A stretch of DNA of 64,000 bases from positions 169,141 through 233,140 of the forward strand of contig JBDRCO010000023.1 in the NCBI GenBank assembly GCA_043821645.1, read 5' to 3'. Below, in pieces: positions 4,739 through 21,016 of the stretch. Each line of letters opens with the position of its first letter. Within the stretch, counting starts at the first letter, position 1. Made by a program: the position numbers and the translations under genes. Source of the DNA: Pseudomonadota bacterium. Its GTDB lineage: Bacteria; Myxococcota; JACRCW01; JAFGSX01. The notes under the pieces were generated by a model, which had not been told where the DNA came from, ran no database searches, and saw only the letters and a program-made list of their open reading frames with translations.

Positions 4739-5716
4739 GTGGCGTCCGCTCCGGGGAGGCCCCGTGTGGCTGTCACCCGCGGTGCCGAAATCGCAGCCTA
4801 CGCTTTCCCCGACGGCCACCCCTTTGGCCCGGACCGCCACGATGTTTTCTGGCGGGCGCTCGATCACAGTGCGCTGGCAGGGCGCGTGGAGGCTCGTGCG
4901 CCGGTGCTGGCACGTGACGACGAGCTCGCGACCTTTCACGAGGCGAAGTACGTGGAGCGGGTGCGCTCGCTGTCCGCACTCGGGCATGGCCTGCTCGACC
5001 ACGGTGATACCCCGGCATTCGCGGGCTGCTACGAGGCGGCGGCCCACGTCGTGGGTTCCGCCCTGGACCTGGCGCGGGCCATTCTCCGCGGCGAACTCGA
5101 CCGCGGCTTCGTCCCCATCGCAGGTCTGCACCATGCGCGGCGCGAGCGCGCAGGAGGCTTCTGCATCTTCAATGACGCGGGCGTGGTGATCGAGGTGCTG
5201 CGCGCCGAACTCGGGCTCGAGCGCTTCGCCTATGTGGACATCGACGCCCACCATGGCGACGGTGTGTTCTACGGTTTCGTCGACGACCCGCAGGTGACCA
5301 TCGCGGACCTCCACGAGGATGGGCGCTTTCTCTACCCGGGCACGGGCTTCGCCCACGAGACGGGAGAGGGAGCGGCGAGGGGTACCAAGCACAACTTCTG
5401 TCTGCAACCTGACGACGGAGACGAGGCCTTTGAGCGCCACTGGTCCAGGGTCGAGGCGATCGTGGACGCGGCGAGGCCACAGCTCATCGTTTTGCAGGCC
5501 GGTGCCGATTGCCTGGATGGCGATCCCATCACCCATCTTCGGTGCAGCGAGCGATCCCACTCCCTGGCCACCAGGACCCTGGTCGGTCTGGCCAAGCGGC
5601 ACTGCGACGGACATGTGCTGGCCCTTGGGGGGGGTGGCTACCACAGGCCCAACCTGGTCAGGGCGTGGCTGGCCATGGTTGCGGGTTTGCTCGACGATGC
5701 CCCGGGCAGCCCCTGA
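4739..5716 (+). CDS. Histone deacetylase-family (AcuC-like) Zn-dependent deacylase
   Basis: GLHHA...GGFCIFND, DIDAHHGDG, QAGAD...DP and LGGGGY motifs. Confidence 0.9.
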   Translation: MASAPGRPRVAVTRGAEIAAYAFPDGHPFGPDRHDVFWRALDHSALAGRVEARAPVLARDDELATFHEAKYVERVRSLSALGHGLLDHGDTPAFAGCYEAAAHVVGSALDLARAILRGELDRGFVPIAGLHHARRERAGGFCIFNDAGVVIEVLRAELGLERFAYVDIDAHHGDGVFYGFVDDPQVTIADLHEDGRFLYPGTGFAHETGEGAARGTKHNFCLQPDDGDEAFERHWSRVEAIVDAARPQLIVLQAGADCLDGDPITHLRCSERSHSLATRTLVGLAKRHCDGHVLALGGGGYHRPNLVRAWLAMVAGLLDDAPGSP

Positions 5717-6497: not shown

Positions 6498-7025
6498 TCA
6501 GCCGCGGTCCGGACAGGTCGGGGGAGCGCAGGTGGTCTCGTCGACACAGATGCCGCCGCAGTCGGCGCCACCGTGGGCGGGATCGCAGTTGTCCGCCTGG
6601 TCGTCGACGCAGAGGAAACCCTCGGCGCAGGGCCTGGCTGCGAATCCACCGCAGAACGCGTAGCTCGGGCAGGTGCGGATCTCCCAGCCACAGGTGCCAC
6701 TGGCATTGCGGTAGCAGTCACCGGGACCACCCAAGGTGCCGTCGGAGCACAGGGTGTTGGGCATGCCCGGGGCAGGCCCGCACTCGGCCTGGGTGCAGGG
6801 CTCGGGGCAGGTGATGATCTCCCAGCCACAGCTTCCGTCGGCATGGCGCACGCAGTCCCCGGGCCCGGCGACAGTGCCGTCGGCGCACAGGGTGTTGGGC
6901 ATGCCCAGTGGCGGGCCGCACTCGTCCGGTCCGCAGGTGGTCGGGGGCTCGGGCTGGCACTCGCCGGCGAACAGGAAGGCGCAGCCGAACAGGGTCAGGC
7001 CAGCCAGGGTGCATCGCTTGAACAT
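6498..7025 (-). CDS. Secreted or lipid-anchored Cys-rich protein with an internal duplication
   Basis: AAGGGAGG RBS; signal peptide MFKRCTLAGLTLFGCAFLFAGEC; two 46-aa Cys repeats plus a CGGFA..PC...C module. Confidence 0.75.
   Translation of the reverse strand: MFKRCTLAGLTLFGCAFLFAGECQPEPPTTCGPDECGPPLGMPNTLCADGTVAGPGDCVRHADGSCGWEIITCPEPCTQAECGPAPGMPNTLCSDGTLGGPGDCYRNASGTCGWEIRTCPSYAFCGGFAARPCAEGFLCVDDQADNCDPAHGGADCGGICVDETTCAPPTCPDRG
6660..6935 (-). repeat. Two tandem 138-bp (46-aa) Cys-rich repeats
   Basis: CGPDECGPPLGMPNTLCADGTVAGPGDC...CGWEIITC versus CTQAECGPAPGMPNTLCSDGTLGGPGDC...CGWEIRTC. Confidence 0.85.
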
Positions 7026-7309
7026 GACATCCTCCCTTGGGTCCATGCGCACGCAGGTTCGCGATCCTTATGCATGTCGCCACGAATTTGGCCAGGAGCG
7101 GCTCGCGCGCTCCCGGCGGGTGCCAGCTCTCGGCGCAGCCGGCAGCCGAGCATGCACCGCAGACCGTCCTGGGGTCCTCGCCTCGCGTGCCCTGCCGGAC
7201 GGCGGAGGTGCGCCACCCACCTGGCGCAGAGACTCGTGGTACAACGGGGGCGGAATCGCTCAGCGCGCGCGGGAGCAGTGCGAGGACCGCGCGCAGGGTG
7301 GCGAGCGCC

Positions 7310-8245
7310 ATGTCCCAGTGCAGCGTCAGGATATCGGGACTGAGCAAGCGCTATGGCGATCTCATCGCCGTGGACAGGCTTGACCTCGAGGTCGGCGCGG
7401 GCGAGATCCTCGGCTTCCTGGGGCCCAACGGCGCCGGCAAGACCACCACCCTGCAGATGATGTGCGGCCTGCTGAAGCCCGATGCTGGAAGCGTCGAGCT
7501 CGAGGGGCGCGTGCTCACCGCCGGCCAGGGCGTGCCCAGCATCGGGGTGTCGCCGCAGAACCTGGTGATCTGGAACACCCTGACCTGCCAGGAGCAGCTC
7601 GAGTTCGTGGGTCGCATGTACGATCTGTCGTATCGCGACGCACGGCAGCGCGCCCGGCGCTTGCTCGGGGACTTCGGCCTGCAGGACAAGGCCCGCCGAC
7701 TGGGTCGGACCCTGTCCGGAGGCATGCAGCGTCGGCTCAACATCGCGCTTGCCCTGGTGCACGGTCCTCACATCCTGTTTCTCGACGAGCCCCAGGCTGG
7801 CCTCGATCCCCAGAGTCGCGTCCTGGTGCGCGAGTACCTGCAATCGCTGCGCGGCCGCATGACCGTGATCGTCACCACCCACGACATGGAGGAGGCGGCC
7901 AAGCTAAGCGATCGCGTGTGCGTCCTGGATCACGGGCGCTTGCTCGCCCTGGATACGGTGACGGGAATCCTGCAGGGCCATGGCGAGGGAGCACTCACCT
8001 CCATCGTCATCGGCTGCGACGCTGCCGATGCCCGCCTGGCCAACCTGGAGTCACAGATCACCGCGAGCGGGTGGAGACGACATGGCAATGAGCTGCGCCA
8101 GCTCGGACCGACCCGGGCCAGCGCGGTGGCCGAGGTGCTGCAGATCATCGCGCGCGAAGATCTCGAGGTGACGGGGATTCACACGCGCGAGACCACCCTG
8201 GAGGACGTGTTCCTGGCACTCACCGGCAGGAGCCTGCGCGAATGA
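7310..8245 (+). CDS. ABC-2 type exporter ATP-binding protein
   Basis: Walker A GPNGAGKTT, signature LSGGMQRR, Walker B LFLDEP, TTHDM and C-terminal TLEDVFL. Confidence 0.92.
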   Translation: MSQCSVRISGLSKRYGDLIAVDRLDLEVGAGEILGFLGPNGAGKTTTLQMMCGLLKPDAGSVELEGRVLTAGQGVPSIGVSPQNLVIWNTLTCQEQLEFVGRMYDLSYRDARQRARRLLGDFGLQDKARRLGRTLSGGMQRRLNIALALVHGPHILFLDEPQAGLDPQSRVLVREYLQSLRGRMTVIVTTHDMEEAAKLSDRVCVLDHGRLLALDTVTGILQGHGEGALTSIVIGCDAADARLANLESQITASGWRRHGNELRQLGPTRASAVAEVLQIIAREDLEVTGIHTRETTLEDVFLALTGRSLRE

Positions 8246-9417
8246 GAGTCCTCGCTTACCTGCACAAGACCTTCTTGGAGAACCTGCGCGAGTGGAAGGT
8301 GCTGTCCTTTGCCCTCGTATTCGCGCCGGCCTTCGTCTTCATGATGTACGGCTACTACAACGCGGCGTCTTCATCCTACGCCCTGCTCGTGCTCGACGGG
8401 GACCGCTCCCGGGAGGCCCCGGGTCCTGGCGCTGAGGTCGAGGTCCTGCTCTCGGCCCTGCGCGAGGCGAAGCACGCGGACGGCGTGCCGCTGTTCGTCG
8501 TAAATGAGGTGCGGGATCTGGAGGCGGCGCGTGCACGCGTTCGCCAGCGCAGCGCGGATCTTCTGGTCGAGATCCCGGCCGGTTTTGCGGCGGCGGTGAG
8601 GGCTTTTCGCGACGGCCAGAGCTCCGAACCCGCCCACCTGGTTCACCACAGCGACGACAAAAACCTGCGCGGGTCCATGGCCATGGCGCTGTCCGACTAC
8701 GTGCTCTACACCACCCTCACCGAGGTCACCCGGGCCAGACTCCCGCTCGCCGTGTCCGTGCAGCCCGTGGGAAGCGGACGCCCGCTGAGCGAGTTTGACC
8801 TGTACGTGCCGGCACTGCTGGTGCTGGCCATCATCATGATCCTGTTCACGGCAGCGACCTCTCTGATCCAGGAGGTGGATCGCGGCACCCTGATGCGACT
8901 GTCCCTGTCCCGGCTGAAGCTGTGGGAACTGCTGGCCGCGGTCTCCGCCAACCAGGTGCTGCTGGGGCTGGTGGCCCTGACCCTCGCCTACCTGGCCGCC
9001 CTGTCCTGTGGCTACCGCAGCGAGGGATCGCTGGTCGTCCTGCTCGTGGTCGGCGCCTTGACCAGCCTGAGCGTGGTCGCGATCGCGGTGATCACCGCGG
9101 CCTTGCTGAGGTCCATGTTCGAACTGCTCACCGTCGGCACTTTTCCCTTCTTCATCCTCATGTTCTTTTCCGAGTGCATGTTTCCCCTCCCCAAGCTCCC
9201 GGTGGTGCAGATCCTGGGGCACACCCTGTACGCCAACGACGTGCTGCCCACGACGCTGTGCGTTCGCGCCTTTCAGCAGGTGCTCAACTTCGGTGCCGGG
9301 ATCCGCGACGTGGGATTCGAGCTGGTCGTCATCGGCCTGCTCACCACCCTGTACTTCGCCCTGGGTACCTGGCTCTTTTCCCGTCGTCACGGGCGCATGT
9401 CAGCCCGGCGGGCGTGA
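8242..9417 (+). CDS. ABC-2 type exporter permease
   Basis: ATGA overlap with the ATPase gene; one TM, an extracytoplasmic loop, then five TMs; EVDRGTL motif. Confidence 0.88.
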   Translation: MRVLAYLHKTFLENLREWKVLSFALVFAPAFVFMMYGYYNAASSSYALLVLDGDRSREAPGPGAEVEVLLSALREAKHADGVPLFVVNEVRDLEAARARVRQRSADLLVEIPAGFAAAVRAFRDGQSSEPAHLVHHSDDKNLRGSMAMALSDYVLYTTLTEVTRARLPLAVSVQPVGSGRPLSEFDLYVPALLVLAIIMILFTAATSLIQEVDRGTLMRLSLSRLKLWELLAAVSANQVLLGLVALTLAYLAALSCGYRSEGSLVVLLVVGALTSLSVVAIAVITAALLRSMFELLTVGTFPFFILMFFSECMFPLPKLPVVQILGHTLYANDVLPTTLCVRAFQQVLNFGAGIRDVGFELVVIGLLTTLYFALGTWLFSRRHGRMSARRA

Positions 9418-9461: not shown

Positions 9462-9863
9462 TCAGCCCTCGGCCCAGGTCAAGGCCGTGGTCGGACAGAA
9501 GGCCGCACAGGTGGGATTGCCCTTGCACAGGTCGCACTTGAGCGCGACCTGGGTGTCTTGCCGGAAGTACATGGCGCCGAAGGGGCAGGCATACACGCAG
9601 GCCTGGCAGCCAAAGCAGCGGTCGTTGACCTCGAGGGCATGGGTGTCGGAGTTGCGGGTGATGGCCTCGACCGGGCAGGCCTTGACACAGGCCGCGTCGT
9701 CGCATTGCAGGCAGGTCAGGGGCACGGGGACGGTGTCGACCCGCCGCACGTCGATGACGCGAGGACCAATGGGGCTGGGCGCGCCGGAATGGTAAAAGGC
9801 ACAGGCCAGCTCGCAGTTGCGGCAGTGGGTGCACTCTGTGGGGCGAACGATGAGTCGCTTCAT
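9462..9863 (-). CDS. 4x[4Fe-4S] polyferredoxin (CooF/HydN/DmsB-like electron-transfer subunit)
   Basis: 16 Cys in CTHCRNCELAC, CLQCDDAACVKACP, CFGCQACVYACP and KCDLC..PTCAAFCP; GAGGAGG RBS before MKRLIV. Confidence 0.9.
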   Translation of the reverse strand: MKRLIVRPTECTHCRNCELACAFYHSGAPSPIGPRVIDVRRVDTVPVPLTCLQCDDAACVKACPVEAITRNSDTHALEVNDRCFGCQACVYACPFGAMYFRQDTQVALKCDLCKGNPTCAAFCPTTALTWAEG

Positions 9864-9868
9864 CGTGG

Positions 9869-10699
9869 TCACCTCCTCATCGTGCCGCTGGGCAGCGGCG
9901 GTGGCGTGCCACCCATGGCCTTGGGCGTGAAGCCCGGGTGGGTCTTGAGCACCACGTCGGCGAAGGTGCTGGCGGTGCGCTGACGCTTGCAGCTCGGGCA
10001 CTCCTCGTAATAGCTGGCGTCGAGCCCGCTGCGCCGGACCAGCAGGTCTCTTTCGTCGGCCGTCATGAAGGGCGCGTGGCAGGTCTTGCAGGTGAGAAGC
10101 GCGAACTCGCGCTCCCAGATCCGACGAACCCCCTGTTTCTCCTCGAAGGGAATGCACGCTGTGGGGCAGATGCGCGCGCAGGCAAAGCAGCCCACGCAGG
10201 CCTCGGCCGCACCGCCAAAAGGTGTGGCGATGACCTTGTCGCTGCCGCGCTGGGCCGTGGTGATGGCGTGGGCACCCACGCGATCACAGGCACGCACACA
10301 CAGGCCGCACAGGATGCAGTCGTCCGCATCCGTCCGCGGCGTGTAGCTGGTCCTGGCCACGCCCGCGTCGCGGGCCATCTGCTGGATCAGGGGTGCGTCC
10401 GGGCACCGCGCGAGAAGCAGATCCAGAAGCTGGGCGCGCGTACGGCGCACGCGCTCGCTCTGGGTGGACACCTGCAAGCCCTCCTCGACGGGATAGAGGC
10501 ACGAGGTGACCAGCTTGCTCCAGCCGTCCCAGCTCGGACGTGTGATCTCGACCACGCACACGCGGCAGGCCCCGACGTCCTCGACCGCGGGGTGGTGGCA
10601 CAAGGTCGGAATGGGAATGCCTGCGCGCGTGGCGGCATCAAGCAGGGTCTCGCCCTCGCGCGCCGTCAGCTTGCGGTCGTCAATGTGGAGCGTCACCAT
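9869..10699 (-). CDS. NuoG-N/HoxU/BamI-like Fe-S subunit ([2Fe-2S] + 2x[4Fe-4S] + C-terminal CxxC...CxxC), no catalytic domain
   Basis: IPTLC...GACRVCVVE...TSC; CILCGLCVRAC; CVGCFACARICP; CKTC...CPSC; only 276 aa. Confidence 0.88.
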   Translation of the reverse strand: MVTLHIDDRKLTAREGETLLDAATRAGIPIPTLCHHPAVEDVGACRVCVVEITRPSWDGWSKLVTSCLYPVEEGLQVSTQSERVRRTRAQLLDLLLARCPDAPLIQQMARDAGVARTSYTPRTDADDCILCGLCVRACDRVGAHAITTAQRGSDKVIATPFGGAAEACVGCFACARICPTACIPFEEKQGVRRIWEREFALLTCKTCHAPFMTADERDLLVRRSGLDASYYEECPSCKRQRTASTFADVVLKTHPGFTPKAMGGTPPPLPSGTMRR

Positions 10700-12612
10700 C
10701 AGATCACCTTGATCGCGTCAAAGGTGCAGGCGCGAATGCACACGCCGCAGTGGGTACAGGTGTCCTGGTCAATCAGGTGTAGCTGCTGCTTCTCGCCGGC
10801 AATGGCGTCGACGGGGCACAGGCGCTTGCACACCAGGCAGCCTGTGCAGCTGTCGAGCACCTCGAAGCGGCTGAGCGCGGTGCACACGCCGGCGCGGCAG
10901 CGCTTGTGCTCGATGTGTTCGATGTACTCGTCGCGAAAGTACTTCAGCGTCGACATCACCGGGTTCATGGCCGAGGTGCCCAGTGCACACAGGCTGGCCT
11001 CGAGCACGAAGGCGATGTTCTCGATGCTGTCGAGGTCCTCGAGACGACCCTCGCCCCGGCAGATGCGGTCGAGGATGCCGAGGAGCTGGGTCAATCCCTC
11101 TCGGCACGGCACGCATTTGCCGCAGCTCTCCTCGGTGAGGAAGCGCGTGAAGTAGCGGGCGACGTCCACCATGCAGGTGAAGTCGTCCATGACGATCATG
11201 CCGCCCGAGCCCATCATGGCCCCGGCCTTGGTCAAGGAATCAAAGTCGACGTGCAGGTCGAGGCAGCTCTCGGGCAAGCACCCGCCCGATGGGCCCCCGG
11301 TCTGTACGGCCTTGAAGGGGCGCTCGTTCAGGATACCGCCGCCCACATCGTAGATGATGTGGCGCAGGGTGACGCCCATGGGCACCTCGATGAGGCCCGT
11401 GTGCCGCACCGTCCCGGACAGCGAGAAGGCCTTGGTGCCTGGAGATTTCTTGGGGCCGATGGACGCGAAGGCCTCGGCTCCGTGCTCGAGGATCCAGGGC
11501 ACGCAGGTCCAGGTCTCGACGTTGTTGAGCACCGTGGGTTCGTCAAACAGCCCGCGCTCGACGCTGCGCACGTACTTGGCGCGCGGTTCACCGACATTGC
11601 CGGCGACGCTCTGCATCAGGGCACTGGACTCGCCGCAGACGAAGGCGCCGCCGCCTCGGCTGATCGTGAGATCGAAACAAAAGCCCGTGCCCAGGATGTC
11701 CTCGCCGAGAAGACCGTGGGTGCGCGCGTCGACGATGGCCCTGCCCAGGCGCTCCACGGCCAGGGGGTACTCCTCCCGCACGTAGATCCAGCCGTGCTGC
11801 GAACCCAGGGCGTAGGCGCCGAGGATCATCCCCTCGACCACCGCGTGCGGATCGCCCTCCATGATCACGCGGTCCATGAAGGCCCCTGGATCACCCTCGT
11901 CACCGTTGCACAGCACGTGGCGCGGCACCTTGCCCTCACCCTCGGCCTCGCGCTTCTCGGCGGCGGCGATGCAGCTCTTCCACTTGCGGCCCGTGGCAAA
12001 TCCAGCTCCGCCGCGGCCGCGCAGGCCAGAGCGGTCGACCACCGCGAGCACGTCCGCCGGCGTCATCGAGGTGAGCGCCTGCACCAGCGCTCGGTACGCG
12101 CCGTGGGCGATGGCGTCCTCGATGCTCTCGGGGTCGATGACCCCGCAGTGACGCAGGGTCAGGCGGTGCTGGTGCTTGTAAAAGGGGATCTCGTCGAAGC
12201 GCGCCACGGGCGCACCGGGCTTGGTCTTCTTGCCCGGCTTGGGTTTTGCGAGGGCCACGGTGGGGCGGTAGGCCAGCTTCTCGTCATAGCCATCGCCCAC
12301 CACGCTGGCGTCGAGAATGGCGTCCAGCATGGTCGGCTTGACCTTGGGGTACAGCAGGTGGCCTGGCTCGATGATGACCAGAGGGCCGCGCTCACACAGG
12401 CCGTGACAGCCCGTGAGGGTGGTGCGCAGCGTGGTCTGGACGTCGAGCTTGCGCGCGCGGATCTTGTCCTGCAGCGCCTGGTAGAGCCGCGCCGAACCGG
12501 CCGCCAGGCAGCCGGGGCCGCCGCACACGAGGACGTGCTTCCGGGTCTTGCCCTGCCGCGCCACGACGCTGTCGCGCCAGGTATCCAGGTCCTTTTGCGT
12601 CTGCACCCGCAT
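10699..12612 (-). CDS. NuoF/HydB (BfuB)-like FMN/NAD-binding subunit with N-terminal [2Fe-2S] and C-terminal 2x[4Fe-4S]
   Basis: SGLRGRGGAGF, NGDEGDPGAFMDR, GAFVCGE, TGGPSGG and ESCGKCVPCREG motifs; C-terminal ferredoxin domain. Confidence 0.93.
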   Translation of the reverse strand: MRVQTQKDLDTWRDSVVARQGKTRKHVLVCGGPGCLAAGSARLYQALQDKIRARKLDVQTTLRTTLTGCHGLCERGPLVIIEPGHLLYPKVKPTMLDAILDASVVGDGYDEKLAYRPTVALAKPKPGKKTKPGAPVARFDEIPFYKHQHRLTLRHCGVIDPESIEDAIAHGAYRALVQALTSMTPADVLAVVDRSGLRGRGGAGFATGRKWKSCIAAAEKREAEGEGKVPRHVLCNGDEGDPGAFMDRVIMEGDPHAVVEGMILGAYALGSQHGWIYVREEYPLAVERLGRAIVDARTHGLLGEDILGTGFCFDLTISRGGGAFVCGESSALMQSVAGNVGEPRAKYVRSVERGLFDEPTVLNNVETWTCVPWILEHGAEAFASIGPKKSPGTKAFSLSGTVRHTGLIEVPMGVTLRHIIYDVGGGILNERPFKAVQTGGPSGGCLPESCLDLHVDFDSLTKAGAMMGSGGMIVMDDFTCMVDVARYFTRFLTEESCGKCVPCREGLTQLLGILDRICRGEGRLEDLDSIENIAFVLEASLCALGTSAMNPVMSTLKYFRDEYIEHIEHKRCRAGVCTALSRFEVLDSCTGCLVCKRLCPVDAIAGEKQQLHLIDQDTCTHCGVCIRACTFDAIKVI

Positions 12613-12614
12613 GA

Positions 12615-13073
12615 TCAGTTCCTCGCGCCTGGCAGGAGAGCAGGAGCGCTCGCCGGGGTGACCGCACCATGCACCTCGTCATCGATCATGACGACGGGCG
12701 CCAGGGCACACGCACCCACGCAGTTGACCCCCTCGAGGGTGTGCTTCATGTCCGCGGTGGTCTCGCCCCGGGCCACGCCCAGAGCCTTCTCGAGCTCCTC
12801 GATGACCAGACCGCTGCCCCGCACGTGGCAGGCCGTCCCCGTGCACACCCGCACGCGATGCTCGCCCCGCGGGGTGAGGCTGAAGGCCTTGTAGAAGGTC
12901 GCGATGGCGTAGACCTTGGAGGCTGGCACCTCGAGGTAGTCGGCAGTCGCGCGCAGAGCAGCCTCGGGCAAATAGCGAAAGTGCTTCTGGAAGTCGTGCA
13001 GCAGGCCAACCATGGAGGCGGACTGGCGCGGGTGCTGCTGCAGGATGTTCTCGATGTCCGCATGGTCGCACAT
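12615..13073 (-). CDS. NuoE/HydC-like [2Fe-2S] subunit
   Basis: ATFYKAFSL, VCTGTACHVRG and NCVGACALAP motifs. Confidence 0.93.
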   Translation of the reverse strand: MCDHADIENILQQHPRQSASMVGLLHDFQKHFRYLPEAALRATADYLEVPASKVYAIATFYKAFSLTPRGEHRVRVCTGTACHVRGSGLVIEELEKALGVARGETTADMKHTLEGVNCVGACALAPVVMIDDEVHGAVTPASAPALLPGARN

Positions 13074-13088
13074 GGGTTCTACCCTCGG

Positions 13089-13631
13089 TCAGGCTTTTGG
13101 CTGCACGGCGTCGTGTCCGCGTTGCAGGGCGCGCAGGTTGATGTCGACGATCTTGGGTTTGTGGCCAAAGGTCTCCTTGATGAGGTGGTGCACGGTCTCC
13201 AGCTTGACCGCATGGGTGAGGCCCAGATAGGCGCCCAGAGCCACCATGTTGGCGGCCTTGCCCGTGCCCTCCTCCATGGCAATGTCATTGCAGGCGACGT
13301 GGTGCACCTGGATATCGGTGCGGTCGGTGTCGACGTCGATGAGCGAGGTGTTGATGATGAGCACGCCGCCAGGCTTGACCCGCGGTCCGAACTTGTCGAG
13401 CGAGGGCCGGTTCATCACCACCGCGGCCGTGGGATTCTGGAACACCGGCGAACCGATGGGCTGGTCCGAGATGACGACGTTGCAGTAGGCGGTGCCCCCG
13501 CGCATCTCGGGACCGTAGGAGGGCAACCACACCACCTCGCGACCCTCGTCGAGACCAGCGTGGGCCAGCAGCTTGCCCGTGAGCAGGATGCCCTGGCCGC
13601 CGAAGCCAGCGATGGTGACCTCACGATGCAT
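13089..13631 (-). CDS. 2-oxoacid:ferredoxin oxidoreductase gamma subunit
   Basis: AGFGGQG, PSYGPEMRGGTA and NMVALGA motifs; start MHREV overlaps the beta-subunit stop. Confidence 0.93.
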   Translation of the reverse strand: MHREVTIAGFGGQGILLTGKLLAHAGLDEGREVVWLPSYGPEMRGGTAYCNVVISDQPIGSPVFQNPTAAVVMNRPSLDKFGPRVKPGGVLIINTSLIDVDTDRTDIQVHHVACNDIAMEEGTGKAANMVALGAYLGLTHAVKLETVHHLIKETFGHKPKIVDINLRALQRGHDAVQPKA

Positions 13632-14388
13632 GCGACACCTCGCGGGCTCCATCCTCGGGTGTCTTGAACAGGCCGAGCGGATAGGCCGGCACCATGTTCT
13701 TGGCAAGCCAGGTGGCCGACTCGGGCGGCGTCAGGCCCCAGTTGGTGGGACAGGTCGACAGGCACTCGACGAGGGAGAAGCAACGGCCCTCGATCTGGTA
13801 CTCGAAGGCACGGCGGATGGCGGCCTTGGCGGCCACGCTGTGCATCTCGTCGTGAACCGACACCCGCTCCAGGTAGGCCGGCGTCTGCAGGGTCGACAGC
13901 AGCTCGACGATGCGGATGGGCCAGCCCGCCTGGTTCACGTCGCGGCCCGCCGGACAGGTGGTGGTGACCTGACCGGGCAAGGTCGTCGGCGCCATCTGGC
14001 CCCCGGTCATGCCGTAGATCGCGTTGTTCACGAAGATGGTGGTGAACTTCTCGCCACGATTGGCCGAGTGGACGGTCTCGGCCATGCCGATCGACGCCAG
14101 ATCGCCATCCCCCTGGTAGCTGAACACGACAAGATCCGGACGAGCGCGCTTGATGCCCGTGGCCACCGCCGGAGCGCGGCCATGTGCAGCCTCGTGCATG
14201 TCACAGTTGAAGTAGTTGTAGGCCAGCACCGAGCAGCCCACGGGCGCCACGCCAACGGTTCGCTCGCGCACCCCCAGCTCGTCGAGGACCTCGCCCACCA
14301 TGCGGTGCAGGATGCCGTGGGTACATCCCGGACAGTAGTGGGTCTTGACGTCGACCAGTCCAGGCGTGTTCTTGAAGACCAGTTCCAT
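13621..14388 (-). CDS. 2-oxoacid:ferredoxin oxidoreductase beta (TPP-binding) subunit, Vor type
   Basis: HYCPGCTHG, PVGCSV, GDGDLASIG...NNAIYGMTGGQ and STCPTNWG motifs. Confidence 0.93.
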   Translation of the reverse strand: MELVFKNTPGLVDVKTHYCPGCTHGILHRMVGEVLDELGVRERTVGVAPVGCSVLAYNYFNCDMHEAAHGRAPAVATGIKRARPDLVVFSYQGDGDLASIGMAETVHSANRGEKFTTIFVNNAIYGMTGGQMAPTTLPGQVTTTCPAGRDVNQAGWPIRIVELLSTLQTPAYLERVSVHDEMHSVAAKAAIRRAFEYQIEGRCFSLVECLSTCPTNWGLTPPESATWLAKNMVPAYPLGLFKTPEDGAREVSHAS

Positions 14389-14396
14389 GATCGACC

Positions 14397-15497
14397 TCAC
14401 ACGGTTGAGGAGAAGGGATCTCCCAGAACCGTGACCTTCTTGCCGTCAAGCACCTGTCTGGCCACGTGCAGGACCTCCTCGGGCGAGCACACCATGCCGC
14501 CGGCGCGACCGAAGAACGAGATGGGCTGGCGGTCCGACGTCGACAGGCGCACGTCCTCGATCATCTGTCCCATGCTCAGCTCGACCACCAGGATGGCCCT
14601 GGCCTTCTCAGCACGCGCACGCAGTTCTGCCTCGGCGAAGGGCCACAGGGTGATGGGACGAAACACGGCCACCTTGCGGCCTTCACGGTTGAGTTCGTCG
14701 GCGGTGGTCTTGGAGATGCGCGCCACCGTGCCGTAGGCCACGATGAGCAGGTCCAGGTCGCCCTCGGCACCGTAGTGTTCGAAGCGCGACTCCTGGCTGG
14801 TGATGCGCTCGTACTTGCGACGCAGCATGATGTTGTGCTGCTCGAGTTCCAGCGGATCCAGGAACAGGGAATTGACGATGTTGGGTGCGCGACCCTTGGC
14901 TCCCGTCGTGGCCCAGCTCTTGACCGGCAGGTCGGAGGCACCACGAGGGTTGAACTGCACCGGCTCCATCATCTGGCCGATGAGGCCATCGCCCATGACC
15001 ATCACGGGATTGCGGTAGCGGTCTGCGATGTCAAAGGCATCCATCATCAGATCCGCGGCTTCCTGCACCGTCGACGGCGCCAGAACGACCATCCGGTAGT
15101 CGCCGTGGCCGCCTCCTTTGGTGGCCTGCAGGTAGTCACCCTGCCCGGGCAGGATGCCGCCCAGGCCAGGCCCTGCCCGCACGATGTTGATGATCACCGC
15201 GGGCAGTTCCGAGCCAGCCATGTAGGAGATGCCCTCGGTCATCAGGCTCAGGCCCGGACTCGAGGTGGAGGTGAACACGCGCGCACCAGCGCCGGCGGCG
15301 CCATAAAGCATGTTGACCGAGGCCACCTCGCTCTCGGCCTGAACGAACACACCCCCCACCTCGGGCAGGCGTTTTGACAGGTACTCGGGCACCTCGGTCT
15401 GCGGGGTGATGGGATAGCCGAAGAAGCACAGCGCTCCCGCCTGGATGGCAGCCTCGCCCAGTGCCTCGCAACCCTTCATCAGCTTCTTGTCGCTCAT
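14397..15497 (-). CDS. vorB: 2-oxoacid:ferredoxin oxidoreductase alpha subunit (VorB-like, branched-chain 2-oxoacids)
   Basis: FGYPITPQTE, QAESEVAS, TSSPGLSLM and RAGPGLGGI..QGDY.QATKGGGHGDY motifs. Confidence 0.88.
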   Translation of the reverse strand: MSDKKLMKGCEALGEAAIQAGALCFFGYPITPQTEVPEYLSKRLPEVGGVFVQAESEVASVNMLYGAAGAGARVFTSTSSPGLSLMTEGISYMAGSELPAVIINIVRAGPGLGGILPGQGDYLQATKGGGHGDYRMVVLAPSTVQEAADLMMDAFDIADRYRNPVMVMGDGLIGQMMEPVQFNPRGASDLPVKSWATTGAKGRAPNIVNSLFLDPLELEQHNIMLRRKYERITSQESRFEHYGAEGDLDLLIVAYGTVARISKTTADELNREGRKVAVFRPITLWPFAEAELRARAEKARAILVVELSMGQMIEDVRLSTSDRQPISFFGRAGGMVCSPEEVLHVARQVLDGKKVTVLGDPFSSTV

Positions 15498-15498
15498 G

Positions 15499-15732
15499 TC
15501 AGTACTCGAACAGCTTGTACTGGTTACCGTTCAGGCCGACCTGGATCGCACAGTCCGGGCAGGTGATGGCGCACAACCCGCAGCCTATGCAGCGCGACGG
15601 GTCGTTCATCAAGGCCGGGAAGTAGCCCATGACGTTGATCTCCCGCGCCATGCCCAGGATGCGCTGCGGACAGGCCACGACACAGCGCTCGCAGCCCTTG
15701 CACAACTTGGTATCGATCAGCACCCGCGGCAT
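15499..15732 (-). CDS. 2x[4Fe-4S] ferredoxin (OFOR delta subunit)
   Basis: CKGCERCVVACP...NxMGYFP...CIGCGLCAITCPD. Confidence 0.93.
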   Translation of the reverse strand: MPRVLIDTKLCKGCERCVVACPQRILGMAREINVMGYFPALMNDPSRCIGCGLCAITCPDCAIQVGLNGNQYKLFEY

Positions 15733-15750
15733 GGCGTGCTCCTTTGCATG

Positions 15751-16521
15751 TCACTTCACCCCGGCCGGCAAGGCCGGCGTCGGTGGTCGGCCAATAGGGC
15801 CACGCCTCTGGTTCGGCTCCCAGGGCGACGTCATGAAGCGTTCGAGCGCGAGCACCGGACAGTCGAAGGCGTTCTCGCCCACGGTCTCGAGCACTCCGCG
15901 CTCGACGCTGGCGAAGCGAAGCGGCACGCCCACCTGCTCGCCGAAGGCGCGGGCAAACGCGATGCCACCCTGAACAACCTCGACGCTGGTCTCGTGAATC
16001 AGGTGCGCGTTGGCGACCAGACCCGTGACCTTGAGACGACTCGCGGCCTCGAGGTCGTTGTACATGCGCTGGCAGCCCTCCGCGGAGTCGGTGAAGGGAC
16101 GGCGCTGATTGACGACCTGGAGCACATCGGCCTTTTGCAGCCTCAACGTCGCCGAATAGGTCCCCAGCACGCGCGCACCCAGGTCATCACCGCCCACATC
16201 GAGGACCACGTGACCATCGGCGCTGGCGATGGCGCCCGCCACTTCGCGCAGCAGGATGGGCAGATCCGCAAAGGCATACTCGTTGGCCGGCGCCACCACC
16301 TCGATCCCCTGGGCCTCGACGTGGCTGCGCGCCTCCCGGCTGCGGAAGAACAGGTTGATGATGTCCAGGTCAACCAGTTGAACGCGTGCACCCGTGGTTC
16401 TGAGGGCCAGCGCGTAGTTGATCGCGATCTCGGTCTTGCCGGATCCGAAGTTTCCAATGAAGACGGTGACCGGCTGGGGCGGCGGGAGGTTCCAGTGGTT
16501 GTGGCCTGGTGCCATGGTCAT
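15751..16521 (-). CDS. Uncharacterised P-loop NTPase (SIMIBI-like) heading the vor operon
   Basis: Walker A GNFGSGKTE, DLDIINLFFRSRE and LDVGGDDLGARVL motifs; start uncertain (16521 or 16515). Confidence 0.8.
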   Translation of the reverse strand: MTMAPGHNHWNLPPPQPVTVFIGNFGSGKTEIAINYALALRTTGARVQLVDLDIINLFFRSREARSHVEAQGIEVVAPANEYAFADLPILLREVAGAIASADGHVVLDVGGDDLGARVLGTYSATLRLQKADVLQVVNQRRPFTDSAEGCQRMYNDLEAASRLKVTGLVANAHLIHETSVEVVQGGIAFARAFGEQVGVPLRFASVERGVLETVGENAFDCPVLALERFMTSPWEPNQRRGPIGRPPTPALPAGVK

Positions 16522-16817: not shown

Positions 16818-18911
16818 TCAGGCCATGTTCACGATGCCGGTCTCGGCGAGCACATAGAGCACGGCCAGGGCGCGCTGCTGTGCATCATGGGCCACGGCGC
16901 CACAGCTCAGGATCACCTGAGGCAGACTTCGCTCCCCGTCAATGGCCCGCACCACAGCGAGTTCGTCCGGACGGAGCCGAAGCGCATCGATGTGGGACGC
17001 CTTGGCATCGCGCAAATTGACAAGTCGCTGGCCACGCGGGACCAGGTTGGCCTTGAGCTCCTCGAGGGTGAAGGTACGGCGAATCGCGCGGGTCAGGAGG
17101 CCTGGCAAGGACGCGATGCGGAAGTGCACGGTGACCGGAGGCGGCGCTTCTGGAAAAACCCGCACCCGGGCATGCGGCCAGGCGAAGCACGGATAGAGAC
17201 GGCTACGCAGCAAGGCGCCGAGGTCACGGCGCTGCGCCTCGACGTCGACATCCGGCAGCCTGAGCAGGGCCACGTCGATGGGTACCAGGCGCGTCAGGGT
17301 CTCGTTCAGAGCCAGGCGCGCTCGCCTCGCCCGCTGGTCCTCGATGCGGAGCATCAGGGCGGGCAACCCATCCTTATGGCGTGAACTCGCCACGTAGAGA
17401 AGACGCCCCTCCTTCAGGTACAGCTCGCGCCATTGATCCGGCGTCGCGTTCTCGATGCGCAGCAGCCCACTGAGGCGACGCAACGAAGCCTCGTAGAGCA
17501 CCCGGGTCAGGGAGACCTCGGCAAGCGAGATCTCGAGGCGTGGTGGTCCCTGCGGCGGCGGCCAGGCAGCCACGGTATCCCACAGGCAGGCCTCGCCAAA
17601 GCGTCGGACCGGGATGTGCGGTGCCCCGACCAACCCGAGCTGCCGCACGCTCCCGTCATCCTTGGCGAGCCTGTCGACGAGCGCCTCCAGTTTCACCTCC
17701 CCGAGAAGCTGATCGCCAGCACCCAGAAGCTGGACCAGCGGCTCAGGCGGCGCACGCTCGTCGATGTCAAAATCGAAATCTTCACCAGTCCCCAGCCCAG
17801 GATCGGTCTCGATCTGCGAGCCCATGGGCTCTATCCAGCTCGCCGGTGGCTCCGGATCAAACGCGGTGTTGCCCCCCATCTGCAGGGCCAGGATGCGCGA
17901 GGTGTTGTCGGTGAAATCGCCCCAGTCGTCATCGCCGACCTGGCCGCGGGGCAGTGGTGGCGGGAGCACGAGGGGCAGGGCCTCGAACGGAAAGAGTGAA
18001 CTCATCACGTCGCCAATGCGCCTGCGGTTCCAGCGCAAGCGGCGCGCGAAGAGAAAATCGCTCAGGGCTTCTTCCAGCTCCTGGGCGCTTTGAAAGCGCT
18101 TGTCGCGGTCCTTGACCAGCGCCTTTTGCACGATGCGATCGATATCCGGGGCGATCCGCGGGTTGAAGTTCGAGGGCGGGGGCGCCTCCTCGCCTCGAAC
18201 CTTGACCAGCACCTCGACGTCGGTGCGGCCAGTGAAGAGACGTTGGCCGGCCAGGGTCTCCCACAGACTGACCCCGGCGGCGAAGACATCCGCCCGCTGA
18301 TCCACTTCGAGGTGCTGCAAGATCTCTGGCGCCAGGTAGCCGTACTTGCCGCGCAGCTCGTGACCGGCCTCGTCGCCCGCGCCGTGCGACACCCCGAAAT
18401 CCCCGAGCTTCACTTCACCACTGAAGGCCACATAGATATTGGCCGGCGTGACATCGCGATGCACCAGCCCCAGGGGTTTGCCGTCGGGACCCGGTGCCGC
18501 GTGGGCGAAGCCCAGACCCTTGAGCATCTCGACGAAGCAATGCAGCGTGAAATCTACGGGCAGGTCGAAGCTGCGGGCCTGGGCGCGCTTGAGCACCTGC
18601 AACAGGTCCGCGCCGTGCACGTACTCCAGCACGATGAAGGGCTGGCGCCCCTCCTGGCCAAGCGACAGGGTCTGCACGACATTGGCATGCTGCAAACCAC
18701 TCGCGGTCTTGGCCTCGGTGATGAACATCTCGACGAAGCGGGGCTGCGCAGCCAGCGGGCCGAGCAATCGCTTGATCACCGCTATCTTCTCAAAGCCCTG
18801 CGCTCCGTGGGTCCTGGCCAGGTACACCTCTGCCATGCCACCGGTTCCGAGATGCCTGAGCAACTCGTAGTCGCCGAACCAGTGAGGAACAAAGATGCTC
18901 GTCGGCTGCAA
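16818..18911 (-). CDS. Hanks-type Ser/Thr protein kinase with C-terminal DUF4388-like region
   Basis: LGTGGMAEV, IKR, HRDVTPAN, DFG, YLAPE and DVFAAG motifs; probable TTG start at 18911 after GGAGGAG. Confidence 0.9.
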   Translation of the reverse strand: MQPTSIFVPHWFGDYELLRHLGTGGMAEVYLARTHGAQGFEKIAVIKRLLGPLAAQPRFVEMFITEAKTASGLQHANVVQTLSLGQEGRQPFIVLEYVHGADLLQVLKRAQARSFDLPVDFTLHCFVEMLKGLGFAHAAPGPDGKPLGLVHRDVTPANIYVAFSGEVKLGDFGVSHGAGDEAGHELRGKYGYLAPEILQHLEVDQRADVFAAGVSLWETLAGQRLFTGRTDVEVLVKVRGEEAPPPSNFNPRIAPDIDRIVQKALVKDRDKRFQSAQELEEALSDFLFARRLRWNRRRIGDVMSSLFPFEALPLVLPPPLPRGQVGDDDWGDFTDNTSRILALQMGGNTAFDPEPPASWIEPMGSQIETDPGLGTGEDFDFDIDERAPPEPLVQLLGAGDQLLGEVKLEALVDRLAKDDGSVRQLGLVGAPHIPVRRFGEACLWDTVAAWPPPQGPPRLEISLAEVSLTRVLYEASLRRLSGLLRIENATPDQWRELYLKEGRLLYVASSRHKDGLPALMLRIEDQRARRARLALNETLTRLVPIDVALLRLPDVDVEAQRRDLGALLRSRLYPCFAWPHARVRVFPEAPPPVTVHFRIASLPGLLTRAIRRTFTLEELKANLVPRGQRLVNLRDAKASHIDALRLRPDELAVVRAIDGERSLPQVILSCGAVAHDAQQRALAVLYVLAETGIVNMA

Positions 18912-18938
18912 AGGACTCCTCCGGCGCGTGACCGGCGC

Positions 18939-18967
18939 ATGGTAGGCAGAGACAGCCCCCGTTTCAA
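18939..18967 (-). promoter_or_regulatory. Candidate sigma70 promoter of the kinase gene
   Basis: TTGAAA-17 nt-TACCAT, followed by GGAGGAG and TTG. Confidence 0.55.
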
Positions 18968-19120
18968 GCAGACACGGCCCCATGCCTCGCGGTCACATTC
19001 GACGTCTGCGGTCAGGTCGAAGCTGGAGCCGGTGAACGTGCCGCCCGACCACGCAACCGCACGCAGCACGGCCCACACCCTACGACTCGAGCTCCGTGAT
19101 TGGCAGGGACATCGACGCAC

Positions 19121-21016
19121 TCAACGCAGGTTGTTGCGGACCGAGCCTGTTCGACGGCAGCGCCATCCTAAAAGCCCCAGCAGGAAAAGAATCCCAGGCC
19201 GGGAGACACTCGTTCTGCACTGGCAGCCTGCGGTGCTGGGAGTAGGCGGATCGCACGGCTCCCCGACGCAGGCCAGTGAGCGGTCGTCCGCGTCTCCACC
19301 CGAGACTGCTGCATCGACACCAGTGTTCGCGACGCTGTCGTTCGTGGCCAAGTCCGAGCCTGCCCAAGCGTCACCCGTGTTGCTGGCATCGACGGGAGCA
19401 ACGGTCCCGACGTCAGCCAGGCTGGTTCCCGCATCCGGAGTGCCTGCATCAGCGGCCATGCACTGACCTTGCGCGCAGGTCTGCTCCGCACCACATGCAC
19501 CACACACGCCGCCACAGCCGTCCGGTCCACAGACGCGCCCCGCACAATCGGGCACACAGCCAGCACGTGGCTTTCCCCATAGCATGGTGCGTGCGTAGCC
19601 CAGCCCCAGGCTGGCGCCCATGCAGAACTCGCCCACCGCGGTCGGGCCCTCCAGAAACCACATGTACGGATCCTGCAGATCCTCGCCGAGCACAAACCAG
19701 CGCAGCACGTCCCAGGCGTAGAAGTAGCAGGGGCCCATATGCAGGCCCCCCGCCACCAGGGCCCGGGTGTCGTAGCCCCGGTCCGCCATCAGGGGCTCGA
19801 CCATGAGAATCTGGCGCTTGCCGCGGTTGGTCATCTCGACCAGGTCGGCGTACTTGTCGTTGCCCGGGCTGCGGCCCATGTCCATCCAGTCGGCATAGCC
19901 CCAGTTCTCCTGGATGAAGGTGGTGGAGCCAACGCGGGCGCTGTCGCTGCCCGCGCAGAGGTCGGCGATCGCCTGGTATGGGTAGAACACGTAGAGGTAG
20001 CGGCGCAGGGTGCCCTGACCGGGGTCGGGCGGATACGCACTGAGGCCGGCGCCGCGCATCCTCCAGTAGATGCCACCGATGTAGAAGGCCAGCAGTTCCC
20101 GCTCGCGGTCACTCAGCGCCGGGTGCAGCAGCTCTGGGCGCACCCGCCCCTGGGCCTCGACGGCGGCGCGGTCGTCCGCGGCCTGGGCCAGCCCCTCGCT
20201 GTACAGGGTGTTCAGCCCGCTGCGCACCGCCGTGAGCTCGTCGACCAGGGTCCCGATGGTGGTGGCCAGACTCTGTCGCGCCACACTGTCAAAGCAGCTC
20301 GTGTTTGCCTGCAGCAGCCCGAGCACACTGGCATAGGCGTCGAGGCGACTCTGGAGCTGGGCCTGCAGCGGGTCATGGCGGATCTTGGCGATCACTCTTC
20401 GAGCAGTCGCGACAAAATCGTCCGGGAGCAGGCCAGACGGGTATTCGACATGGGTCAGGGCTTCACCAGCGTAACTGATGAGGCCCTCGAAGCTGGACAG
20501 GTACTCGCCGGTGACCGCTCCCGGAGTCTGCCTGAAGACAAAGGTCTCGGGGAACTCCACCTCGAGACAGGTCTCGTCGACGTGCTCGAGGGCAGCGCCT
20601 ATTCGAGTGTTCACGCCCTGACAGGCCAGGGACGGGTTCGGCACCAGCAAGTTCGGGACGCTGAAGCGAGCATGCTCGACGCAGGACTGCGGGACCCGAT
20701 CCCAGGCCGGGTCCTCCCCTGGCCCAGACGCCGCGGCGCGCTCCAGGGCGTCGACGACATCCGTGAAGAAGTACAGATCCGCCAGGTCGACACTGCGAGC
20801 CTCCAGTTGCCCGGGGGGCAAGCCAGGGAGGTCGGTGCCGAGCTCGGCGAGTTTCTCCTCGACGTAGGCCGGATTCGCCGTGTCTTGAGGATCGAGATCA
20901 AAGGGCCAGGGATTCGGCTGGCCGCGCGAGAGAGCCGGCACGAGCAGGCAGATCACAAAGGGGAGCACGCCGAAGCAGCGAGGCTGGGACCGGGGAGCGG
21001 CGCGGTACTGCGACAT
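19121..21016 (-). CDS. Secreted protein of unknown function with a Cys-rich module and MYXO-CTERM-like sorting tail
   Basis: Signal peptide; CVPDCAGRVCGPDGCGGVCGAC module; DAG-rich linker; ends GCQC, hydrophobic stretch, WRCRR. Confidence 0.75.
   Translation of the reverse strand: MSQYRAAPRSQPRCFGVLPFVICLLVPALSRGQPNPWPFDLDPQDTANPAYVEEKLAELGTDLPGLPPGQLEARSVDLADLYFFTDVVDALERAAASGPGEDPAWDRVPQSCVEHARFSVPNLLVPNPSLACQGVNTRIGAALEHVDETCLEVEFPETFVFRQTPGAVTGEYLSSFEGLISYAGEALTHVEYPSGLLPDDFVATARRVIAKIRHDPLQAQLQSRLDAYASVLGLLQANTSCFDSVARQSLATTIGTLVDELTAVRSGLNTLYSEGLAQAADDRAAVEAQGRVRPELLHPALSDRERELLAFYIGGIYWRMRGAGLSAYPPDPGQGTLRRYLYVFYPYQAIADLCAGSDSARVGSTTFIQENWGYADWMDMGRSPGNDKYADLVEMTNRGKRQILMVEPLMADRGYDTRALVAGGLHMGPCYFYAWDVLRWFVLGEDLQDPYMWFLEGPTAVGEFCMGASLGLGYARTMLWGKPRAGCVPDCAGRVCGPDGCGGVCGACGAEQTCAQGQCMAADAGTPDAGTSLADVGTVAPVDASNTGDAWAGSDLATNDSVANTGVDAAVSGGDADDRSLACVGEPCDPPTPSTAGCQCRTSVSRPGILFLLGLLGWRCRRTGSVRNNLR

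Follow-up and report, generated by a model that had tools for sequence, protein, structure and literature searches.

The BfuABC enzymes were defined as a family by Schut et al. (2022, Front Microbiol 13:946711, PMC9304861), who list "Por-Bfu" as a predicted member. Dehalococcoides and syntrophic Proteobacteria contribute the 12 sequences by which Por-Bfu is represented there; these are assigned to the BfuB clades 35, 44 and 45. Por-Bfu is described as uncharacterised and was classed as Type 2, with a BfuA subunit that carries the clusters A1, A2 and A4 only. The second closely related system is WorABC(SL)3 from Acetomicrobium mobile (PDB 9MQX; PNAS 2025, PMC12318220), a tungsten aldehyde oxidoreductase that bifurcates electrons. 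Its WorA subunit lacks cluster A3 and recruits WorS by a zinc finger and a C-terminal helix; in the solved enzyme cluster S4 of WorS was placed 10.7 Å from A4. As far as that paper compares the two systems, the BfuA of Por-Bfu has a zinc finger but no helix, and no WorS homologue belongs to Por-Bfu. Here we describe a run of nine genes in a stretch of 64,000 nucleotides (the window) of contig JBDRCO010000023.1, which belongs to a Myxococcota genome of 7.07 Mb in 140 contigs that is 94.7% complete. The run encodes a 2-oxoacid:ferredoxin oxidoreductase (OFOR) of four subunits, the three Bfu subunits, a WorS-like connector and a P-loop NTPase, and we regard it as fairly probable that these are parts of one enzyme system, in which the OFOR is wired via the connector to a bifurcating Bfu core.

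The idea of an OFOR-Bfu enzyme is not new, and by its gene content the nine-gene locus is an undescribed variant of the predicted type. A preliminary description of the window had already paired the OFOR with the Bfu module, which agrees with the published Por-Bfu prediction, although its list of known Bfu partners had omitted Por-Bfu. With the Por-Bfu operons of Dehalococcoides mccartyi and the syntrophs the locus shares one operon for a four-subunit OFOR, BfuC, BfuB and a short BfuA, the cluster set A1, A2 and A4 without A3 or A5, and the proposed reaction, namely 2-oxoacid oxidation with which NAD+ and ferredoxin reduction is coupled. It differs in several respects. The alpha subunits of the Por-type loci which we collected (L004, L018, L025, L085-L088, L090-L092 and L096) are only 23-30% identical to the window alpha, their genes are ordered gamma-(delta)-alpha-beta, and they have no P-loop NTPase gene. 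The window also has the BfuA helix and a WorS homologue, whereas Por-Bfu has neither, and in this our own loci agree with the comparison given in PMC12318220. The 12 published "Por" sequences may already include some of the nine-gene type, in clades 35 and 44. In the literature search no mention of a Vor-, Kor-, OFOR-, Oor-, PFOR- or Ior-Bfu was found, and among publications from 2022 on none was found that joins Bfu, oxoacid and ferredoxin oxidoreductase.

The nine genes stand in tandem on the minus strand (16521..9462), as determined by open reading frame (ORF) calling and inspection of the start codons. They follow each other in the order P-loop NTPase, OFOR delta, alpha, beta and gamma, NuoE-like, NuoF-like, short NuoG-like and 4x[4Fe-4S] protein, with spacings of +18, +1 and +8 nucleotides, an overlap of 11, gaps of +15 and +2, an overlap of 1 and a last gap of +5 nucleotides. 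The spacing between alpha and beta would become an overlap of 4 nucleotides instead of +8 if beta began at the GTG at 14400; the ATG at 14388, which has GAGG upstream, agrees with the N-termini of the orthologues, and so does the gamma start at 13631. Coordinates and start codons bear out the earlier account of nine genes in this order on one strand, separated by at most 18 nucleotides or overlapping, and the domain identities which it gave for all nine products were recovered with Pfam and NCBIfam. Its statement that genes for a hydrogenase, a formate dehydrogenase, an aldehyde oxidoreductase (AOR), Hdr and Bam are missing from the operon also agrees with the Pfam, NCBIfam and tblastn searches of the operon.

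The flavoprotein module starts with BfuC (12615..13073), a NuoE/HoxE-like protein of 152 residues which matches 2Fe-2S_thioredx (PF01257, E = 9e-50) and has the cysteines C77, C82, C118 and C122, as numbered in the translation, for one [2Fe-2S] cluster. The NuoF-like BfuB (10699..12612, 637 residues) is predicted to bind flavin mononucleotide (FMN) and NAD. It comprises the domains Complex1_51K (PF01512, 5.4e-38) and NADH_4Fe-4S (PF10589, 1.1e-29), an N-terminal 2Fe-2S_thioredx domain (residues 19-102) with the [2Fe-2S] ligands C30, C35, C69 and C73, and a C-terminal 2x[4Fe-4S] domain, which was recognized as Fer4 (residues 587-635). The BfuABC family was searched for by Schut et al. with the Nuo51 FMN-binding, SLBB, NuoF 4Fe-4S and ferredoxin-type 4Fe-4S domains (PMC9304861), and all four are present in BfuB, the SLBB domain with 21.7 bits being under the Pfam cut-off of 27. 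Among solved proteins its best relatives are bifurcating enzymes without exception, with E values of 1e-198 to 1e-202: WorB (9mqx_B, 7e-202), the NiFe-BfuB 7t2r_B and HydB (8a6t_B). The same BfuBC core is found in the HydABC [FeFe] hydrogenases (PDB 8A6T, 7Q4V, 7P5H; E = 1e-175 to 1e-198 for BfuB), from which the operon differs in that it has no H-cluster domain and a BfuA of 276 residues, compared to 571-645 residues.

Clusters B2 to B5 and the histidine of the B2 site are reported to be missing from non-bifurcating homologues (PMC9304861). BfuB keeps five of the five B2-site ligands, since C480, C518, H566, C572 and C577, counted from the printed alignment, are aligned to C438, C476, H525, C531 and C536 of 7t2r_B. 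The position equivalent to C518 is threonine in about two thirds of the BfuB sequences; in the NiFe-Bfu enzyme, which has a cysteine there, a [2Fe-2S] cluster and not zinc is bound (PMC9304861). The cysteine of the window BfuB is one of the differences to WorABC(SL)3, where WorB has threonine. In its predicted ligands and domains the Bfu core is of the bifurcating kind.

The third subunit, BfuA (9869..10699, 276 residues), is a short NuoG-like protein of the WorA/HoxU kind with the domains Fer2_4 and 2x[4Fe-4S]. It has the [2Fe-2S] cluster A1 and the [4Fe-4S] clusters A2 and A4, followed by a zinc finger and a C-terminal helix. Residues 96-112 contain one cysteine and no HxxxCxxCxxxxxC motif, and both cluster A3 and the A5/catalytic domain are absent, so that BfuA has the cluster set of a Type 2 Bfu enzyme (A1, A2 and A4 only). 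The match to WorA (9mqx_A, E = 9.5e-50) extends across residues 5-247 and includes the zinc finger and the region of the C-terminal helix. The same chain is the top Foldseek match of the BfuA model, with 243 of 247 columns aligned. The zinc-finger cysteines are C204, C207, C234 and C237, after which 39 residues follow, and in the AlphaFold2 model a helix is predicted at 235-253, immediately behind the second CxxC. An alignment of BfuA sequences separates the types clearly: all 14 Vor-type (that is, nine-gene) and all four Wor-type proteins have an extension of at least 14 residues past the second CxxC, whereas the nine Por-type proteins all end at this CxxC, and no connector gene is present in their loci.

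This connector is the product of the last gene (9462..9863), a protein of 133 residues with 4x[4Fe-4S] which resembles WorS and AorA (a Fer4_11-type four-cluster protein). Its best solved matches are AorA (8c0z_C, 5.7e-31) and, slightly behind, WorS (9mqx_E, 1.6e-29), and its 16 cysteines are invariant in 13 orthologues. The enzyme 9MQX is therefore the best solved match of BfuB and BfuA and nearly so of the connector, and it also shares the missing A3 cluster. On the other hand, the catalytic part in the window is a thiamine pyrophosphate (TPP)-dependent OFOR and not the tungstopterin protein WorL, and no AOR is encoded in the operon. The connector ends just past its last motif and lacks the C-terminal tail of about 25 residues which WorS has in Wor loci. 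As this is the helix for the three-copy nanowire, a single connector copy would be expected instead of a nanowire. A complex prediction of alpha, beta and delta with the connector as partner, which was run without controls, gave scores of 0.00 and 0.04, compared to a mark of 0.32, and speaks neither in favour of binding nor against it.

PadEFGHI is the NADH-dependent phenylglyoxylate dehydrogenase from Azoarcus/Aromatoleum, whose NAD-binding subunit is to our knowledge not a flavoprotein of the NuoF/BfuB type. It is an NAD+-linked OFOR as well (NCBIfam NF045762-NF045766), and the N-terminal four-cluster domain of PadI is homologous to the connector, which matches positions 5-136 of the 443 positions of the PadI model (E = 1.6e-18), while OFOR beta matches positions 221-371. 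Such a fusion of a four-cluster domain with OFOR beta is a Rosetta-stone hint that the connector sits on the OFOR. It also leads to an alternative, in which the nine genes encode a non-bifurcating complex that passes the electrons of the 2-oxoacid to NAD+ only and, like PadEFGHI, would function without ferredoxin as an analogue of a 2-oxoacid dehydrogenase. OFORs that are linked to NAD and carry a polyferredoxin domain by fusion are after all a named NCBIfam family, and a donor near -500 mV reduces NAD+ without any coupling (Table 1, PMC9304861). A direct route to NADH would moreover be useful, since a search of the genome, at its completeness of 94.7%, detected no Rnf. However, BfuB retains every trait by which bifurcating homologues differ from non-bifurcating ones, i.e. 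the B2 ligands including the histidine, the C-terminal 2x[4Fe-4S] domain and the N-terminal [2Fe-2S] cluster, and all Pad models are far under their cut-offs (PadG reaches 67.5 bits of 700). We consider a complex specific for NAD+ to be improbable.

The OFOR which would feed the bifurcating Bfu core is encoded directly upstream of it. Delta (15499..15732, 77 residues) is a 2x[4Fe-4S] protein of the Pfam Fer4 families, alpha (14397..15497, 366 residues) comprises POR_N and PFOR_II, beta (13621..14388, 255 residues) contains TPP_enzyme_C with TPP and a proximal [4Fe-4S] cluster, and gamma (13089..13631, 180 residues) matches Pfam POR with E = 4.9e-41. The motifs by which OFORs are recognized are the YPITP of alpha, the TPP-binding GDG...NN of beta and the cluster cysteines. 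All of them are conserved here: YPITP is invariant in the alignment of alpha orthologues, and in 15 orthologues the GDG...NN motif and C19, C22, C52 and C213 of beta are invariant, as are the eight cysteines of delta. Because these cofactor ligands are invariant, the OFOR looks catalytically competent.

Alpha scores 524.8 bits with the NCBIfam model of the VorB subfamily (NF005507, 3-methyl-2-oxobutanoate dehydrogenase subunit VorB), which has a cut-off of 399. It is the only OFOR subunit that exceeds an NCBIfam cut-off; the matches of delta, beta and gamma fall below. The PorA models give 84-105 bits for alpha (cut-offs 550-625). Membership in the 2-oxoglutarate oxidoreductases OorDABC/KorAB was considered and rejected, as all Oor and Kor models stay under their curated cut-offs: OorA with 212.6 bits (579), OorD with 54.3 (93), OorC with 58.6 (216) and, for beta, PRK09628 with 100 (364). 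The best NCBIfam matches of delta are OorD and the delta subunit of 2-oxoglutarate oxidoreductase, both below the cut-off. The solved chains nearest to alpha are 1yd7_A, 8ys5_A and 6n2n_A, which are the alpha subunit of the Pyrococcus furiosus 2-keto acid:ferredoxin oxidoreductase and 2-oxoglutarate enzymes, and not pyruvate:ferredoxin oxidoreductase (PFOR). By these similarities the OFOR is assigned to the VorB/Kor lineage. The label "Vor-type" given to it at first can be kept to the extent that alpha exceeds the VorB cut-off; it rests on that single subfamily match, which suggests a substrate class only. Most likely, a branched-chain 2-oxoacid or another one derived from an amino acid serves as the substrate. 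Three POR_N genes were found in the genome, encoding a PFOR of 1227 residues, a KorA-like protein of 633 residues and the operon alpha. Since a separate PFOR and a KorA-like gene exist, the third OFOR probably has another substrate.

The conservation of the arrangement was analyzed in four sets of sequences, for which gene maps were drawn from tblastn-anchored ORFs. A search of one-genome-per-species contigs with BfuB retrieved 73 loci, whose gene content was determined by tblastn. Six of these have the nine-gene order (L001, L002, L003, L006, L008 and L010), among them one in a metagenome-assembled genome (MAG) titled Ignavibacteria, and three are of the Por type. In 41 related genomes 14 regions were examined, two of the nine-gene and eight of the Por type. 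The alpha subunit retrieved 80 loci from metagenome contigs (42-63% identity), five of which have the nine-gene order; among the 40 loci that could be assessed, the OFOR is followed by Bfu genes in six, and one more is truncated. Finally, 401 genomes were sampled from the phylum, and 63 of them have an alpha at E <= 1e-80. The regions of the 32 best matches were examined: 14 contain the nine genes, three are cut at the contig end after NuoE or inside NuoF, 11 are without Bfu and four could not be judged. The three regions that are cut include the genome G001 from the same family and the closest alphas, with 75% and 89% identity. The arrangement is thus present in 20 of the 401 sampled genomes, if the own genome, G015 and G026 are counted.

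Altogether 27 loci other than the window show the complete order, and some of them may derive from the same organisms. On these maps the nine-gene arrangement is far beyond chance, and the synteny of vor and nuoEFG' genes, for which the preliminary description had suggested a search in other genomes, is conserved. Two loci depart from the usual order of the OFOR genes. L003 (1147-4278) has about 1.4 kb of additional ORFs between delta and alpha, and in L193 (G332:C50) the order is P-loop, delta, beta, gamma, alpha. Five genomes of family f4 in the window's phylum (G005, G015, G024, G031 and G038) carry Por-type and nine-gene Vor-type operons on separate contigs and have 8-17 NuoF-like matches each.

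The linkage to Bfu genes also follows the phylogeny of the OFOR. In an alpha tree of 85 rows (a quick IQ-TREE run with LG+G4) all 16 Bfu-linked alphas group in one clade of 25 rows, with an SH-aLRT value of 99; one row inside that clade, L114, is unlinked. The label Bfu-linked needs two changes on this tree, compared to a mean of 13.6 after shuffling, and none of 500 shuffles was as low. In a BfuB tree of 83 rows, which was rooted on the complex I NuoF of the genome, the BfuB proteins of the nine-gene, Por and Wor types share a clade of 31 rows (SH-aLRT 95). The NuoF-like subunit, whose placement in a BfuB phylogeny had been proposed as a check, therefore groups with the BfuB of the Por and Wor types. 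This clade fits the picture of clade 45 with its Type 2 enzymes in the tree of PMC9304861. Taken together, the synteny, the single alpha clade and the WorS-like connector with a WorA-type BfuA support the OFOR as the partner of Bfu, which had at first been put forward from the gene order.

The same loci have to be weighed with regard to a second alternative, according to which the operon encodes two separate enzymes. One would be an ordinary OFOR that depends on ferredoxin and has the NTPase as its accessory; the other, made up of the Bfu module and the connector, would serve a partner encoded elsewhere, e.g. an AOR, or only recycle the ferredoxin of the OFOR. The unit of P-loop and OFOR genes is complete and common without Bfu, the closest similarity of the Bfu module and the connector is to the aldehyde-oxidising WorABCSL, and neither of the two AOR genes in the genome has an adjoining WorS-like gene. 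No AOR was found, however, in any of the 28 nine-gene loci including the 64-kb window (406 kb, searched by tblastn with the two AORs of the genome), while three of four control Wor loci gave a match. The connector gene adjoins the AOR gene in true Wor loci (L013 and L073), and here it always stands after BfuA. That the Bfu linkage tracks the phylogeny of the OFOR in one clade argues in the same direction, and for a BfuABC without a third substrate the account in PMC9304861 gives no known reaction. Two separate enzymes are in our opinion rather unlikely. One of the AOR genes is situated between a gene for an HdrD-like Fe-S protein with CCG domains and a short-chain dehydrogenase gene (G000:C9:21652-26611, L188).

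Stand-alone units of the P-loop gene and delta-alpha-beta-gamma (e.g. L098, L105-L107, L109, L145, L211 and L213) have the same five genes in the same order as the window, with identities to the window proteins of 50-60% for alpha and 55-69% for beta. They differ in that no NuoE, NuoF, NuoG or connector gene follows downstream, and presumably they reduce free ferredoxin. Five-gene units without Bfu were also seen in the metagenome loci L115, L149, L155, L164 and L169 as well as in L207, L214, L215 and L221, and three of the contigs with such a unit are labelled human gut metagenome. Of 52 metagenome loci that could be assessed, 29 have the P-loop gene upstream of a related OFOR, among them 15 without Bfu and all six assessable Bfu-linked ones. 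Because it is present at OFOR loci which lack Bfu, the P-loop protein belongs with the OFOR and not with Bfu.

This protein (15751..16521, 256 residues) is a putative P-loop NTPase of the SIMIBI class with a weak match of the CbiA/ParA type; it reaches 25.8 bits with Pfam CbiA (cut-off 25.4), and no other family exceeds its cut-off. The Walker A sequence GNFGSGKTE, a DxD motif and DVGGDD are invariant in 32 homologues. Its AlphaFold2 model has a pLDDT of 83, and the best folds found with Foldseek are the SRP GTPases Ffh/FtsY, MinD, MipZ and HypB, with TM-scores of about 0.5. When its sequence was compared with the PDB, only weak matches to MinD/FleN were obtained (E >= 0.002). The family is large and has no name: 2,837 of the 8,000 candidates scored belong to it at E <= 1e-5. 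Cluster carriers of the Mrp/NBP35 type have a CxxC motif. As the homologues of the P-loop protein have no conserved cysteine and no CxxC, a role as Fe-S carrier of the Mrp type was ruled out. By analogy to other SIMIBI proteins we suppose that it acts, dependent on a nucleotide, in the assembly or maturation of the OFOR.

From these data we infer complex formation, an electron path, the coupling of NAD+ and ferredoxin reduction, the substrate and the role of the NTPase as follows. The delta-alpha-beta-gamma OFOR would oxidise a 2-oxoacid with CoA to acyl-CoA and CO2. The electrons would leave delta for a single WorS-like 4x[4Fe-4S] connector, and not solely for free ferredoxin. The connector would dock on a "socket", which is formed by the zinc finger and the C-terminal helix of the WorA-type BfuA, and from there electrons could pass via A4, A2 and A1 to the BfuBC core with FMN, B1, the B2 site, C1 and B3-B5. 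Two substrate turnovers, i.e. four electrons, would then give one hydride transferred to NAD+ and two reduced ferredoxins by coupled bifurcation. The P-loop protein would assist the OFOR and not the Bfu module.

The same complex could also run in reverse. NADH and reduced ferredoxin would then be confurcated and acyl-CoA carboxylated to a 2-oxoacid for the synthesis of branched-chain amino acids or pyruvate, as Bfu enzymes are reversible and this role was proposed for Por-Bfu by Schut et al. (PMC9304861). With the potentials of Table 1 in PMC9304861, NADH (about -280 mV) and ferredoxin (about -500 mV) would by our own arithmetic give electrons near -390 mV. As this mix is too positive by about 110 mV for a couple at -500 mV, carboxylation would need very high acyl-CoA/CO2 or a strong removal of the product, and the oxidative direction is favoured. 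The genome furthermore contains a heme-copper oxidase fragment and two E1 genes of NAD-linked 2-oxoacid dehydrogenases, which suggests a heterotroph and again does not favour a carboxylating function. We therefore think that carboxylation is an unlikely main function.

There are several points which weigh against a single bifurcating system in the oxidative direction. The OFOR family mostly stands alone, since 34 of the 40 assessable metagenome loci have no Bfu, and the 11 of 32 phylum regions mentioned above lack it in spite of at least 8 kb of downstream sequence. Because most relatives are without Bfu, the OFOR can use free ferredoxin, and its adjacency to Bfu is possibly a matter of co-regulation. 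On the BfuB tree the nine-gene label needs two changes, and some of the inner branches are weakly supported. The two AOR genes of the genome, having no WorS-like neighbour, could in principle use the connector. In five Vor-type BfuA proteins (L001, L112, L146, L151 and L153) the cysteines of the zinc finger are partly or wholly lost, and the analogy to the Wor "socket" may consequently fail in detail; these five retain the C-terminal extension, and the zinc finger may be dispensable for docking of the connector. Schut et al. themselves call it unclear why a donor of -500 mV should need bifurcation (PMC9304861), and the literature search found no purified or assayed OFOR-Bfu enzyme of any kind.

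Other electron-transfer partners in the genome were considered as well. Besides the complex I copy it encodes one bifurcating-type NuoF. No match to Pfam Fe_hyd_lg_C, the domain of FeFe hydrogenases, was obtained in the 94.7% of the genome that the assembly represents. The sole NiFe hydrogenase is encoded elsewhere and has FAD/NAD (diaphorase) and Fe-S subunits of its own, for which reason an assignment of the Bfu genes to a NAD-reducing hydrogenase module of the Hox type was excluded. The hydrogenase locus (G000:C46:39013-44030, L190) encodes a NiFe large subunit, an Oxidored_q6 small subunit, an FAD/NAD-binding Fe-S subunit and a Fer4_22 subunit, and looks like a group 3b (sulfhydrogenase-type) enzyme.

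Whether the locus stands for a distinct "Vor-Bfu" class, in which an OFOR for amino-acid-derived 2-oxoacids is joined by one WorS-like connector to the WorA-type socket, the socket is a general docking device, organisms without Rnf gain a direct route and the NTPase is a dedicated assembly factor, is a tentative proposal to which we give somewhat less than an even chance. If it holds, the socket of zinc finger and helix would allow catalytic modules as unrelated as a tungsten AOR and an OFOR to share one bifurcating core. Organisms without Rnf would have a direct, energy-conserving route from a 2-oxoacid to NADH and low-potential ferredoxin, and the SIMIBI NTPase would be a previously unknown assembly factor dedicated to an OFOR family. 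Flavin-based bifurcation would be extended to the catabolism of amino acids and 2-oxoacids. The variant defines a concrete architecture, from the OFOR over a single connector and the BfuA socket to BfuBC, and it is not rare, as it occurs in the phylum sample, in several metagenomes and in the MAG that is labelled Ignavibacteria. Its interest lies mainly in being a well-defined target for biochemistry and cryo-EM. The P-loop NTPase offers a second lead, as it accompanies a widespread OFOR family, contigs labelled human gut included.

The nine-gene run is bounded downstream by a convergent ABC-2 transporter pair on the plus strand (7037..9417); a convergent ABC gene had been noted there before. 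The end of the ABC-2 permease (8242..9417) is 44 nucleotides away from the stop codon of the connector gene. Upstream, a Ser/Thr kinase gene (16818..18983, minus strand) is found at a distance of 296 nucleotides. A scan for sigma-70-like promoters found none (0.5 expected), and the five terminator-like matches are without exception intragenic (2.4 expected). Two metatranscriptome runs were mapped to the locus. They gave only pieces of 30-59 nucleotides with several mismatches each, most reads being 90-95% alike, and these pieces are taken to come from other organisms.

Some further genes of the window are worth mentioning. An alpha-2-macroglobulin of the bacterial kind with 1474 residues is encoded on the minus strand (21270-25694); it comprises the domains MG2, A2M, TED and MG10, and its translation contains the thioester-like motif CFEQ. 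Two cysteine-rich proteins, both predicted to be secreted and without Pfam match, are encoded on the same strand. One of them (6498-7052) has three repeats which end with CGWEI.TCP, the other (19121-21103) has a CxxC-rich C-terminal stretch followed by a hydrophobic tail. The plus strand encodes a member of the histone deacetylase family at 4739-5716 (PF00850, 2.1e-72).

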